From the NCBI GenBank assembly GCA_964188305.1, contig OZ076890.1: 64,000 nt of DNA. The stretch is one strand, 5' to 3'. A program made the position numbers and the translations under genes. The stretch comes from Podarcis bocagei (lineage: Eukaryota). The notes under the pieces are model-generated. The model saw only the letters and a program-made list of their open reading frames with translations. It was not told the DNA's origin and ran no database searches. Below are positions 639 to 62,407 of this stretch, one piece after another; position 1 is the stretch's first letter, and every line of letters begins with the position of its first letter.

Positions 639-1354
639 CAGTGTTTCCCAAACTTTTTTGGGCAACGGCACACCTGTTTACTGAAAAAAAATCTCGCGGC
701 ACACCATCATTAAAGCCCCGCCCCGTGACGTCAGCGCGCAGCGTCACGCCGGGAGGGACGCACGAAAGTGAAAGTTTTTTCCCTCCCCCTTGCCGGGGAA
801 CCTCCAAGCTTTGGGGGTGGGAGGAGGCAGCAGAGCGAGGGACTGAGGGACGGCGGCAACTGAGGCGGCGGCGGCTGTTGTGGTGGTGGCGGCGATAGCG
901 GGCGGAGGAGGGGGCGGCGGCGGGGCTTGAGGAGCCGTCGCCGGGAGTTGCTGCAGCTCCTCGAAAGGCTTCTCTCAGCTGCGCTCAATCCGCCTCGGAG
1001 AGGATTTCCCCTCCGGTCCCATGCGTTCGTTTGGGGCATCGCTCCGGCTGCTCCCTCTCCCGCCGCGCAGGAGCGATGCCTCTCTCTGGCTCTCCCTCCG
1101 CGCAGGCTGAGGGAGGGAGGGAGGTGCGCATGTGACCCGTCTCTGCTGGGAGACCAAACCCAGCGAGGCAGAGTCGCGCGGAGGCGCCCAGGCAGCGCTG
1201 CCGGCTGCGAGGAGGAGCGCCAGGCAGCAGCAGGAGGCGCGGCCTCTCCTCGCCGCCGCCCGACTCGCCCGCCTCCCTCCAGGCATCTCGCGGCACACGA
1301 GGCAACGTCTCACGGCACACTCGTGTGCCGCGGAACACCGGTTGGGAAACACTG
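639..1354. mobile_element. Non-autonomous hAT DNA transposon with GC/CpG-rich cargo (Pack-hAT-like, copy 1)
   Basis: TIR CAGTGTTTCCCAA...TTGGGAAACACTG; perfect 8-bp TSD GGCTACGT (631-638 and 1355-1362); subterminal GGCACAC repeats; arms 639-759 and 1286-1354 match those of 59952-61394; no transposase ORF. Confidence 0.92.
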
Positions 1355-11165: not shown

Positions 11166-12428
11166 CAGTGGTGCCTCGCAAGACGAAATTAATTCATTCC
11201 GCAAGTCTCTTCGTCTTGCGGTTTTTTCGTCTTGCGATGCACGGTTTCCCATAGGAATGCATTGAAAATCAATTAATGCGTTCCTAGGGAAACCGCTTGC
11301 CAGGCTGGCGGTGCGGAGAAGGGCTTTTCTCCGCACCGCAAGCCTTCAGGACAGGTACGAGAACAGAGGGGAAGGCGCGCAGCGCTTTCCCTCTGTTCCC
11401 GGGGCTTGCGTGGGAGGAGGGTTTTTCCTCCCCGCCGCCAACATTCAGAACAGCATTCTGAATGTTGGCGGTGGGAAGGAAAACCCTCCTCCCACCCCAA
11501 GTCTTCAGGAAAGCCATCCGATGCCGCGCGGTGGGAGGAGGCGTCCCCCCCCCCGCCCGGCATCGGAGCTTCGTTCCGATGCCGCGCGCCGGGAGGAGGC
11601 GTTCCCCCCCCGCCCGGCACCGGAGTTTCGTTCCGATGCCGCGCGCCGGGAGGAGGCGTTCCCCCCCCGCCCGGCATCGGAGCTTCGTTCCGATGCCGCG
11701 CGGGGGGGGGAGGAGGCGTTCCCCCCCCGCCCGGCATCGGAGCTTCGTTCCGATGCCGCGCGCTGGGAGGAGGCGTTCCCCCCCCGCCCGGCATCGGAGC
11801 TTCGTTCCGATGCCGTGCGGGGGGGGAGGAGGCGTTCCCCCCCCGCCCGGCATCGGAGCTTCGTTCCGATGCCGTGCGGGGGGGGAGGAGGCGTTCCCCC
11901 CCCCGCCCGGCATCGGAGCTTTGTTCCGATGCCGCGCACCGGGAGGAGGCGTTCCCCCCCCGCCCGGCATCGGAGCTTCGTTCCGATGCCGCGCGGGGGG
12001 GGGGGGAGGAGGCTTTCCCCCGCCCGGCATCGGAGCTTCGTTCCGATGCCGCGCGGGGGGGGGGAGGAGGCGTTCCCCCGCCCGGCATCGGAGCTTCGTT
12101 CCGATGCCGCGCGGGGGGGGGGGAGGAGGCGTTCTCCCCGCCCCGCCCGGCATCGGAGCTTCGTTCCGATGCTGCGCGGCGGGAGGAGGCGTCCCTCCCC
12201 GCCCGGCATCGGAGCTTCGTTCCGATGCCGCGCGGCGGGAGGAGGTCCGAGGACAGTGGGGAAGACGCGCTGCGCTTCCCCGCTGTCCCGGAGATTTCCC
12301 TATGGGCTGTCGTCTTGCGAGGCAAGCCCATAGGGAAATTCGTTTTGCGAAGCGCCTCCAAAACGGAAAACCCTTTCGTCTAGCGGGTTTTCCGTCTTGC
12401 GAGGCGTTCGTCTTGCGGGGTACCACTG
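11166..12428. mobile_element. Non-autonomous Tigger/pogo-like element with internal hairpin minisatellite
   Basis: 22-bp TIR CAGTGGTGCCTCGCAAGACGAA / TTCGTCTTGCGGGGTACCACTG (2 mismatches); TA TSD at both ends; repeated subterminal CGTCTTGCG. Confidence 0.92.
11517..12245. repeat. GC-rich tandem array, 12 units of about 56-65 bp, each with a 27-nt palindrome
   Basis: CGGCATCGGA-GCTTCGT-TCCGATGCCG starts at 11558, 11615, 11672, 11732, 11789, 11848, 11908, 11965, 12025, 12083, 12148 and 12204; linkers are G-run/GAGGAGGCGTT/C-run. Confidence 0.95.
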
Positions 12429-43847: not shown

Positions 43848-43983
43848 CAGGCATGGGCAAACTCAGCCCTCCAGATGTTTTGGGACTACAACTCCCATCA
43901 TCCCTGACCACTGGTCCTGTTAGCTAGGGATGATGGGAATTGTAGTCCCAAAACATCTGAAGGGCAATGTTTGCCTATGCCTG
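43848..43983. mobile_element. Palindromic 136-bp hAT MITE
   Basis: CAGGCATGGGCAAAC / GTTTGCCTATGCCTG; nearly the whole element is an inverted repeat; TSD GTCTCCAT / GTCTACAT. Confidence 0.88.
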
Positions 43984-44329
43984 GTCTACATTACTAATTC
44001 TTTACTTCCTTTATGAGAAAGTCAGCTTTCTATGTACCATTTATTATGGCTTCCCTGCTTTCCTAGCTTTCCTGTTGTGGCTACTTCTGCTAGTGGGGTA
44101 CCATATTTTGGGGGATTCACTACAGCTAAGCTATGTGCTGTTCCCATAAGAACTTCTGCAATGCCCCTGATGCTCTAGAACTCATACTCTCAATCTCTCA
44201 AGACACACTATAACCCCCTCCCCTCAAATATCCTGCGTTGGTAGTGTATCTGAAACTGGAGCAAAACCTTCCCATTATTTGTACTGATTTGCTTTTGGGT
44301 TGTTTGATTGACATATAGGATGACACACT

Positions 44330-56137: not shown

Positions 56138-56273
56138 TAGGCACAGGCAAACTCAGCCCTCCAGATGTTTTGGCACTACAATTCCCATCATCCCTGACTA
56201 CTGGTCCTGTTAGCTAGGGATGATGGGAGTTGTAATCCCAAAACATCTGGAGGGCCGAGTTTGCCTATGCCTG
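56138..56273. mobile_element. Palindromic 136-bp hAT MITE
   Basis: Close match to 43848-43983; TSD not preserved. Confidence 0.85.
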
Positions 56274-56329
56274 CTTTAAGTCACTGGTTTCAGTGGATCT
56301 ACGTTGAGAATGACCAGTTCAAACATTAG

Positions 56330-59378: not shown

Positions 59379-59868
59379 GGGACTCGGGTGGCACTGTGGT
59401 CTAAACCAGTGTTCCCCAACCTTGGGCCTCCAGCTGTTTTCGGACTACAATTCCCATCATCCTTGACCACTGGTCTTGCTAGCGAGGGATGATGGGAGTT
59501 GTAGTCCAAAAACAGCTGGAGGCCCAAGGTTGGGGAACACTGGTCTAAACCACTGAGCCTTTGGCTTGCCAATCAAAAGGTCGGCAGTTCGAATCCCTGC
59601 AACGGGGTGAGCTCCTGTTGCTCGGTCCCACCTCCTGTTAACCTAGCAGTTCAAAAGCACGCCTGGCGAGAAGGTAAACGGCGTTTCCGTGCGCTGCTCT
59701 GGTGTCGGTGTTCTGTTGCACTAGAAGCAACTTAGTCATGCTGGCCACATGACCCGGAAAAACTGTCTGTGGACAAACGCCGGCTCCCTCGGCCTGTAAA
59801 GCGAGATGAGCGTAGCAACCCCAGAGTTGTTCGCGACTGGACTTAACTGTCAGGGGTCCCTTTACCCT
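59379..59868 (+). mobile_element. Sauria SINE interrupted by a hAT MITE
   Basis: 14-bp TSD TATGGGTGTTAAGC (59365-59378 and 59869-59882); head GGGACTCGGGTGGCACTGTGG; tail GTCCCTTTACCCT. Confidence 0.92.
59407..59542. mobile_element. Palindromic 136-bp hAT MITE
   Basis: Long perfect TIR CAGTGTTCCCCAACCTTGGGCCTCCAGCTGTTTT; perfect 8-bp TSD GTCTAAAC. Confidence 0.95.
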
Positions 59869-59951
59869 TATGGGTGTTAAGCATGCTACTCACTTGCCAT
59901 AAGTTTGCGCTCCACATTCCTGTTGCTTCAGTATATGGAGGTTTCTTAACA

Positions 59952-61394
59952 CAGTGTTTCCCAACCTTTTTTGGGCAAAGGCACACTTGTTTCATGAAAA
60001 AAATCTCGAGGCACACCACCATTACAGCCCCGTGACGTCAGCGCGCAGCGTCACGCTGGGAGGGACATGAATTGCTAGCAAATTACATAATCACCTCCTT
60101 GAGGGCTGGCTCATCTTCTCCGAAGGCAGAACCCCATTAATTAACAGCACAGACTCACACCATAGCCAAGATGAGGGGGGAAAACCTCAGTCATGCACAG
60201 TCATGCACATGTGGGGGCTAAATGAGGACGAAGACCGGGCAGAGAGCAGGGTTCAAATCACCCCACCTGGCCAGGACAATCCCTGGGTGCTCCCTTGGGC
60301 CACTCGCCTGACCCACCTCGCAGGGCTGTTGTTGCGAGGATAACACGGGGAGAACCACGCGCGCCCCCGGGAGCTCCTTGGAGGAGAAAGCGGGCGATGA
60401 ATGCAATGCACGAAATATATGAGAGGCGACCAGGTTTTGCAGGTGAGGGGCCCCCGCCAGCCTCCGCTTCCAACACCCGGCGCAACGACGCCGAAGTTTC
60501 CCCCCGGGCTCGGCTCGGGGAGCAGCGCTGCTCCCCCCCGGCTCCCCTTCGCCCTCCCGGCTCTCTCTGCCGCCCACTGGGGACCCCCCTCACCTGCCAA
60601 GTCCGGAGCGCCGGTGGAAGTTGCATGCATGCATGCATGCAGGGCGCCGCGTTGCCATTGCATTGCACTGCACTCCATGCAACACCTGCACGCATGCATT
60701 GCCTTGCACACCCGCCAAGGGGTCTCCCCGCGGTCCGATGCGTCCCCTCCGGCGCGGATGCAGCATTGCAAAAATAAACCCCCCCCGACGCAGCCCTACC
60801 TGGGGGGCAGCCTCCGCCTCCGCCGCTCCGCCTCCGCGGGGATCCCCGGGCTCCATCCTGCCGCCCGATCTCCGCGGGGGCGCAGGCAGGCTGCGCGGGG
60901 TCTGCGCGGAAGAGCCCCTGCCCGCCCGGCCGCCGCCGCTGCGATCATTCCATGGCCGGGAGAAGAGCGCTTCAAACAAAACGCCCGGCCCGCCAGGCCA
61001 CGCTGGGAAACGTAGTTAGCGCACCCCGCGCGGGCGCGGAGCCCAAGGGCGAGGGGACTACGGATCCCGGCAGCCCCCGCGCCGGGGACGGAGGGGGAGA
61101 GGCCGGGTGCAGGGATGAGGGGACGGGTGGGCGAGCGAGTGAGTGAGTGGCAGCCGCCAAGCCTTGGCCGACAGCCAGGAAGGGCCTCCCCGGAGGAGGA
61201 GGAGGAGGAGGAGGGAGGCGCAGAGCGGGAGGGAGGGAGGGAGGGAACCCCAGGGGTCATCTAGTGACGGCGCCCCAATCGAAAATTTGACTTAAAAAAA
61301 AAAATCTTTCGAATTTTTTAATTTTTCCCGCGGCACACCAGGCAACATCTCGCGGCACACTAGTGTGCCCCGGAACAGTGGTTGGGAAACACTG
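59952..61394. mobile_element. Non-autonomous hAT DNA transposon with CpG-island cargo (Pack-hAT-like, copy 2)
   Basis: TIR CAGTGTTTCCCAA...TTGGGAAACACTG; perfect 8-bp TSD TCTTAACA (59944-59951 and 61395-61402); arms 59952-60066 and 61326-61394 match copy 1. Confidence 0.92.
60800..60856 (-). pseudogene. Putative captured first coding exon (MEPGDPRGGGAAEAEAAPQ) inside the hAT element
   Basis: Minus strand GGCAGG-ATG-G (A at -3, G at +4), 19 codons, then CAG|GTAGGG donor, embedded in CpG-island sequence; source gene not recognised. Confidence 0.55.
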
Positions 61395-62407
61395 TCTTAA
61401 CACACCTTTTCCAAGGTAACATGGTTGTGAGTTCACCCCTTTTTATGCATAACAATAATAATAATAATAATACCCCAGCCACTCTGGGCGACTTTCAGCG
61501 TATATAAAAACATAATGAAACATTAAAAACAAATTGTGAACTCAAGGGCGCAGTTCATAATACTTAAAAGGGCTTATATCTGCAAGACTATTTACGCTAA
61601 TATCACATTAAGATTGCATGGACTCTCCTTGCTCTACCCTTCACGTGCTGGATGCTATGGTGGCCCTAATCCAGGAAGTCTCTCTTTTTTTTAGCTTTAC
61701 ATTTGTCAGCTTTAGTTGCTTTGTAAACCAGATAATTAAAGAATGTGGGCTCAATTCATAAGTGTATGTGAATAGGTTATTGCATGAATGTAGCTACTGT
61801 AATTTCCACATATCCGTCCACTATAGGAACACTGTCTAAAGCCAGCTTCACAAATAATTGTGTTCTTAGTGCCGCTAATCTTCCTTGTTTATTTTAACTT
61901 GAATCGTTCTAAGTCCTAAAGCTATTTTCATATTTCCTTTTCCCCTTGCTCTTGATTACTTAGGATAATGTGTAAATAATTTTTTTTAAAAAAACTTTTA
62001 AAGCTCAGGGTTTAATTTTTTTAAAGAAAAGAGAAAAGGCTCACTGAAGTTCTTGTGTCTTAGAAAAGTAGGTCACGAAGTAGAATACAACACAATCAAA
62101 CTAATTAAGAGGGCTGTTGTTGTTTTTTCTCAGCAAAGTGCCATGAAGAAAAGATCAATACAGCAAAAACCCTTTTCACTGTGGAGCCAAGGGAATTGGA
62201 AAAGATCCACTTGTGCTTTCAGACCTTAAATGCTGGAGGCTGATGTCATTAAGAAAACCAGCTGAGGACTGAAAAGTAAACCAAGCAAACTAATAGGTTT
62301 TATGTGTAGGAGGGGGAAGGGGGGGAGGTGTATACCAGTAATATCTATGGCAGCGTTTCTCAATTCGCTGACAGCTAAGGCACCCTATTTTTCTTAAGTA
62401 AATTGTA

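Follow-up and report, generated by a model that had tools for sequence, protein, structure and literature searches.

The start of KRBA1 carried by a multicopy, non-autonomous hAT element in the genome of Podarcis bocagei

Introduction

Multicopy TIR transposons that have captured genes are reported to be rare and low-copy in animals. According to the accessible portions of the survey by Tan et al. (2021), four multicopy Pack-TIR families were found in 100 animal genomes, with the example, Pack-hAT-N8_XT, a hAT carrying the 5′-UTR of CAPSL, having three copies; the paper also proposes that multicopy Pack-TIRs arise by template switching followed by transposition (PMC8277862). Anolis was the only lizard in that survey, with no Pack-TIRs and no hAT consensus in the library used, and neither Podarcis nor any other lacertid occurs in those of its supplements that were searched (PMC8277862). 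Elements of the hAT superfamily have an 8-bp TSD and a short TIR of 5-27 bp, and the Buster family of hATs is characterized by the target consensus nnnTAnnn (available part of PMC3517528).

Gene starts are also carried by other kinds of elements. In bats, HelibatN3 contains the NUBPL promoter, six codons and a splice donor, and both promoter and exon-trap activity were shown for it; the same text cites 4,690 copies that carry the promoters of 15 genes (available part of PMC4778049). Rice Pack-MULEs copy, by preference, GC-rich, low-methylation gene sequence in open chromatin (available part of PMC5861414). For the hobo-type hATs of Anolis, Novick et al. reported uptake of genomic DNA and recombination between non-autonomous families, and the words "exon" and "gene fragment" are absent from the main text of that paper (PMC3014272).

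Here, we describe an element with the start of KRBA1 as cargo, which constitutes a multicopy Pack-TIR: it has non-TE cargo between TIRs, a TIR-free parent, and unlinked copies with different TSDs. Compared with the published systems, as far as the accessible texts describe them, it resembles Pack-hAT-N8_XT in its hAT ends, in a TIR-free parent on another chromosome, in distinct TSDs and in a GC-rich 5′ cargo, but differs from the families of Tan et al. in that its cargo yields 776 genome matches and belongs to a lizard family with many cargos. Like HelibatN3, it combines a (here putative) promoter, an ATG, a short coding exon and a donor and was amplified on a large scale; however, HelibatN3 is a rolling-circle element without TIRs, its capture proceeded by end bypass, and the activity demonstrated for it is hypothetical for the KRBA1 element. 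With the Pack-MULEs, it shares TIRs, GC-rich gene cargo and a diversity of cargos, some of them mosaic, although these plant Mutator elements have long TIRs, whereas in the lizard hAT the TIRs measure 15 bp and a single cargo can reach hundreds of copies. The Anolis elements are likewise lizard hATs that acquire genomic DNA and recombine, but their cargo is genomic DNA with older TE fragments. Literature searches on lizard hATs, Pack-TIRs and KRBA1, with most subscription papers and Repbase/Dfam, in which the consensus may be entered as an ordinary hAT, outside their scope, returned no report of the family.

Results

The analyzed window is a 64,000-nt stretch of Podarcis bocagei DNA (contig OZ076890.1 of assembly GCA_964188305.1), in which positions 60201-61300 form a CpG island (GC 0.63-0.77, CpG o/e 0.61-1.04 versus 0.39 for the whole window). 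A sequence-only reading of this region had proposed the promoter, first exon and intron 1 of a host gene on the minus strand, and its landmarks, namely, a GC-rich leader, an ATG in the context GGCAGG-ATG-G at 60856, and a phase-0 donor CAG/GTAGGG at 60800/60799 that closes the exon-1 frame, were all reproduced. The 57 nt from 60856 to 60800 translate to MEPGDPRGGGAAEAEAAPQ, which is identical in 19/19 positions to residues 1-19 of KRBA1 of P. lilfordi (P0007), the outcome of the comparison with lacertid N-termini suggested in that reading. The N-terminus of P. muralis KRBA1 reads MEPGGPRGGGAAEAAPQ-TSTPVD. The protein search retrieved four lacertid records only, three of them named KRBA1.

The parent gene is located on contig C12. 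An RNA-like contig departs from the element exactly at 60800 onto a KRAB exon, and its next 30 letters have a single genome match, C12:60525053-60525082, which is preceded by AG and encodes the start of the KRAB box (PF01352, E value of 1e-19), i.e., exon 2 of KRBA1. Exon 1 of KRBA1 lies on C12 19 kb upstream of exon 2, and the exons of P0002 map there in order. The proposed host-gene exon is thus real, with a genuine donor followed by intron 1. Alignment of the parent segment C12:60543932-60544924 with window positions 60210-61265 gave 946 identities in 1,072 columns, of which 103 were gap columns (946/969 identical in ungapped columns only), and the captured piece contains the entire CpG island of the parent. 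The second parental segment matches 60072-60200 in 126/129 positions, compared to the element consensus. Both fragments retain the strand and the order that they have in the parent. The donor reads GTAAGG in the parent versus GTAGGG in 37/39 copies; in the assembly's parent allele, residue 15 is K instead of E, and 59 bp are missing from the TGCA-rich intron part. The segment 61020-61260, previously read as possible upstream or divergent-gene sequence or a second fragment, is indeed upstream sequence, collinear within the 60210-61265 piece; the true second fragment is the one at 60072-60200, which also derives from KRBA1 intron 1.

The cargo is enclosed by two identical 15-bp TIRs and, on both sides, by the same 8-bp TSD (Table 1). 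No match to the element ends was detected within 140 kb around the parent KRBA1, and the one loose TIR-like hit in the intron of the parent, at a distance of 1 kb from fragment 1, turned out to be a different sequence. Since upstream DNA and intron 1 are retained, exon 2 is absent, and the parent has no TIR, capture took place at the DNA level and not by retroposition, as had been suggested. We consider the identity of both cargo and container, a KRBA1 start inside a hAT element, near certain.

Table 1. Positions of the element, its parts and a related element in the window
Feature	Position	Strand	Remark
TSD, left copy, 8 bp, TCTTAACA	59944..59951		
Complete Pack element (non-autonomous, Buster-type hAT), 1,443 bp	59952..61394		
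Transposon end: 15-bp TIR and subterminal sequence	59952..60024		73 bp identical to the end of L278
Captured fragment 1: KRBA1 intron 1, 129 bp	60072..60200	-	Parent C12:60541823-60541951
Filler, 9 bp, repeating the end of fragment 1	60201..60209		~1,980 bp of parent intron absent here
KRBA1 intron 1, captured 5′ portion (590 bp, contains TGCA repeats)	60210..60799	-	
KRBA1 exon 1, coding part, ATG to phase-0 donor	60800..60856	-	
KRBA1 5′ leader and upstream CpG island	60857..61265	-	Putative promoter
Second transposon end (15-bp TIR, subterminal repeats)	61266..61394		Common to sister subfamilies
TSD, right copy, 8 bp, TCTTAACA	61395..61402		
Second element of the same family, 716 bp, TSD GGCTACGT	639..1354		Different GC-rich interior, parent untraced

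The region does look like an ordinary first exon within a CpG island, complete with a good donor, and it could in principle represent the first exon of a real gene in place beside chance transposon ends, a segmental duplication, or a retrocopy. We give this group of readings practically no weight. They are refuted by the matching TSDs on both sides, the end of similarity to the parent inside the element, the hundreds of copies with differing TSDs, the retained intron 1, and the lack of poly(A); the retained upstream DNA and the missing exon 2 also speak against a retrocopy. Furthermore, a Pfam scan of 52 of the 109 window ORFs of at least 85 amino acids (aa) gave no family match. Helitrons have TC...CTRR ends and no TIR and insert between A and T without a TSD. 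A Helitron origin was rejected, as TIRs and an 8-bp TSD are present.

Other repeats were noted in the same window. Both ends and a TSD were found in 12/12 checked loci of the type represented by the second element in Table 1. A GC-rich tandem array of 12 copies of 57-60 bp with internal inverted symmetry, at 11467-12245, also scores as a CpG island. Hairpin MITE-like short repeats with related ends starting with CAG lie at 59390-59559, 43848-43995, and 56139-56285, one of them 400 bp from the element.

The KRBA1 start is present in the genome in hundreds of near-identical copies. A search of the genome with 60250-61270, nearly the stretch that the sequence-only reading had recommended for finding the parental gene, gave 886 first-look candidates; each of the 40 that were scored showed 96-100% identity along essentially the whole query. 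A 24-mer from exon 1 matched the genome 776 times with at most one mismatch (control, 0), a count that excludes the parent with its two mismatches. Both TIRs and a TSD were found in 19/20 fetched loci distributed across many contigs, although these were the best matches and hence a biased sample. Among consecutive listed copies on contig C2, 39/40 possessed both TIRs and a TSD of their own, which was centered on TA in all 39. The mean divergence of these 39 copies from the consensus is 1.26%, and 0.69% at non-CpG sites. The ATG is present in 39/39 and the combination of ATG, frame and GT in 34/39, as expected without selection at 1% divergence. A 6-nt deletion at 60810, seen in 4/17 reads, was considered as a marker of the parent allele; however, copies carry similar shortenings (in 8/39 of them, the exon-1 peptide is the same shorter one as with the deletion), and the deletion therefore cannot distinguish the parent from the copies.

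The assignment to the hAT superfamily rests on the ends and the target site. The 8-bp TSD and the 15-bp TIR are hAT end features, and the Buster target nnnTAnnn was present in 62/62 family elements on contig C1 as well as in 39/39 KRBA1-type copies on C2. A candidate source of transposase was found on contig C19, where a relative (L278) is identical to the window element over its first 73 bp; this end sits 3′ of an intact open ORF of 603 aa. Transposases of the hAT superfamily have a BED finger, a DDE core and a dimerization domain at the C-terminus. The ORF likely encodes a hAT transposase, as judged from Pfam matches that fall below the curated cut-offs, namely, zf-BED (E value of 0.027) and Dimer_Tnp_hAT (E value of 0.014). 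Its acidic, HC-LH and RW motifs lie at positions that we take to be typical of hAT. A PDB search with the 603-aa sequence found no relative, an exact-sequence look-up did not return it, and the single-sequence fold prediction had a pLDDT of 37, too low to use. The 5′ part of L278 contains an LTR-type insertion, and its other end is out of view. At another locus (L274), a MITE of the family is nested within a transposase-bearing copy of the same family.

Deamination of methylated C raises the rate of CpG transitions. In the KRBA1-type copies, transitions had occurred at 354/9184 CpG positions (3.85%) versus 82/26141 other G/C sites (0.31%), a 12-fold excess, and the excess was 13-fold in the SIX5 and L050 types, two other cargo types of the family described below. 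The 12-fold excess indicates that the KRBA1-type copies are likely methylated in the germline, and this mutation pattern suggests that most of the moved islands lose their unmethylated state there.

Four raw RNA runs, whose species label is not necessarily that of the genome, contributed 13, 24, 65, and 103 reads on 60560-61180 (205 in total) from the 6-12% of each run that was sampled. At this shallow depth, which is insufficient to reveal single-copy chimeras, neither a joint nor a pile-up of read starts was detected, and no loose end supported by 3 or more reads fell at 60800. Depth was flat across the donor (~13-16 at the donor in two runs and 0-1 in the other two), which fits read-through of copies within introns. 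That RNA reads cover the cargo, albeit at low depth, implies that some copies are transcribed, at least via read-through. Loose ends of 4 reads each were observed at 61075 and 61107, beside low-complexity sequence. The sequence-only reading had suggested looking for chimeric junction reads leaving 60800; the sole spliced form observed, in the RNA-like contig, joins element exon 1 to KRBA1's own exon 2, and a protein search with the exon-1 frame, a weak test for chimeras, retrieved KRBA1 only. A plus-strand GTGAGT near 61140 was considered as a donor for the divergent zinc-finger gene; no such junction was present among the contigs and reads, and other CpG-rich spots lie between its equivalent in the parent and the zinc-finger ORF.

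These results bear on the idea of live copies acting as portable promoters and exon traps, many of which would start transcription and splice the KRBA1 donor onto neighboring exons in the manner of HelibatN3. The element contains the complete parent CpG island, ATG, frame and GT are intact in most copies, the donor of the copies agrees with the U1 consensus in 7/9 positions compared with 8/9 for the parent donor, and the HelibatN3 element with its NUBPL piece provides a bat precedent (available part of PMC4778049). Against this stand the CpG transitions, the four shallow RNA runs, and a single spliced contig that leads to KRBA1 itself, and we regard such widespread activity as improbable. Of the portable gene start that the sequence-only reading envisaged, the preserved structure held up, while no foreign splice occurred among the 205 reads. 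As for a regulatory role of the copies, the mutation and read patterns lean toward silence for most of them. Collectively, we conclude with a probability of about 0.88 that the window element is one of ~780 non-autonomous Buster-type hAT copies with a KRBA1 start captured as DNA, likely spread by the transposase of the family itself and likely methylated and mostly silent.

The KRBA1 type is one member of a larger family. The common 35-bp end of the family matched the genome 5,937 times (control, 0). A sample of 70 ends was drawn from the beginning of C1, i.e., the first 30 listed and 40 more after skipping 8 known KRBA1-type ends; 69 could be parsed and 62 had a TSD, which was centered on TA in 62/62. 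The 69 elements comprised 15 interior types, many of which are mosaics of shared blocks; the commonest, whose source was not traced, accounted for 34/69. CpG-island-like sequence was found in 61/62 interiors but in only 1/62 flanks, with a single type making up 30 of the 62. Nine types have a private segment of at least 400 bp inside the family ends, and in every one of them the CpG o/e of that segment was 0.68-0.87 versus 0.28 for the element flanks (L112 was omitted from this set, as its long segment appears to be flank).

Parents were traced for three cargo types; all three are CpG islands and two are annotated gene starts. Besides KRBA1, they include the SIX5 type, which carries the SIX5 upstream region and ATG as well as a portion of the SIX domain, has ends and a TSD in 30/30 fetched loci (221 first-look candidates), and derives from C7:8088453-8089654, a region without TIR. 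The third is the L110 type, whose parent (L176, also on C7; 1 of 29 loci) is a CpG island without TIR or gene name. The cargo of the L050 type has a CAG/GTAGGG donor as well; among 72 pattern matches, the 30 + 8 loci examined for its parent, with tandem-repeat places left out, were all element copies.

Several features of individual types were noted along the way. Three telomere-like TAACCC repeats open the L050 cargo (L050:1501-2401 and related loci), and a 341-bp tandem duplication that takes in the donor is present in many copies of this type. In at least 5/6 L110-type copies (L149, L151, L153, L156, L158, and L159), the same retroelement-like sequence, presumably Penelope-like, is inserted at a TA microsatellite near the element end, with truncations and inversions that differ between copies, and TA repeats were likely targeted repeatedly. 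A 380-aa "SIX1 SD domain" record of P. muralis (P0017, UniRef A0A670I980) follows the SIX5-type element across its junction and TIR, which suggests that a Pack element was annotated there as a gene. This record also places the SIX5-type element in a P. muralis assembly.

Discussion

How the cargos were acquired can be approached from their structure. We infer capture by template switching: a broken or excised family member under repair would have switched template to the open CpG island of KRBA1, and repair synthesis would have copied ~1.05 kb of the KRBA1 start and then, after a jump of ~2 kb within intron 1, another 129 bp, with a templated filler of 9 bp left behind, before the copied piece rejoined the other transposon end. 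The family transposase would then have amplified the product in one recent burst, to which the low divergence of the copies points. This proposed route agrees with the Pack-TIR template-switch model as given in the available part of PMC8277862. At the outer capture junctions, we found no clear microhomology. The same route may repeatedly have taken other CpG islands, such as the SIX5 start and the island on C7, and since CpG islands were picked up repeatedly, the family likely draws on gene starts that are open and GC-rich, as Pack-MULEs do in plants.

An alternative holds that random DNA was captured with no preference for gene starts and that GC-rich founders amplified best or recombined from one another; indeed, the CpG-island bias could stem from amplification rather than capture. 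Many interior types are mosaics with shared segments, about half of the sampled elements belong to a single type, parents are traced for three types only, several cargos (L052, L079, and L088) include AT-richer flanking DNA, and uptake of genomic DNA together with recombination is on record for Anolis hATs (available part of PMC3014272). We nevertheless judge this alternative to be rather unlikely, given the high CpG o/e of the private segments in 9/9 types and the CpG-island nature of every traced parent, two of them annotated gene starts.

Under template-switch capture of open gene starts, inserted copies would likely lose island protection in the germline, and the minority landing in an intron on the right strand may be able to serve as alternative first exons. 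In its broadest form, the hypothesis is that a recently active cut-and-paste hAT family of wall lizards takes up CpG-island gene starts by preference (those of KRBA1, SIX5 and others), reshuffles them and spreads them by the thousands, with some copies becoming new promoters or first exons in Podarcis. We advance this as a speculative proposal, doubtful as a whole. If true, it would provide a vertebrate counterpart of Pack-MULEs rewiring genes, and the effects may differ between Podarcis species and populations.

The amplification of the KRBA1 type is far above that of the animal cases in the one survey compared, according to its accessible portions (PMC8277862). A young lizard family with repeated capture and hundreds of copies per cargo, whose parents and a transposase ORF the genome still contains, opens a vertebrate test of how TIR elements capture DNA, and ~780 near-identical islands in different surroundings allow testing of whether a moved CpG island stays an unmethylated promoter. 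In practical terms, the copies create false CpG islands and disturb read mapping at KRBA1 and SIX5.

Finally, the parent locus itself yielded some observations. In the last KRBA1 exon (L022:3092-4066, minus strand; C12:60478092-60479066), at residues ~1480-1660 of P0002, the C-terminus of lacertid KRBA1 resembles LINE-1 ORF1p with its coiled coil and RRM (best PDB match of 155 residues, E value of 0.022), although Pfam detected no LINE-1 ORF1p-type family there. The same C-terminus occurs in the Zootoca record P0016, and it possibly reflects the fusion of a domesticated ORF1 with a KRAB protein, as far as sequence resemblance can tell. A C2H2 zinc-finger ORF (L030:595-2184, plus strand) lies at a distance of 11 kb from exon 1, in head-to-head orientation to KRBA1, and beyond it are GTPase ORFs (L032-L035) that we take to be GIMAP-like.
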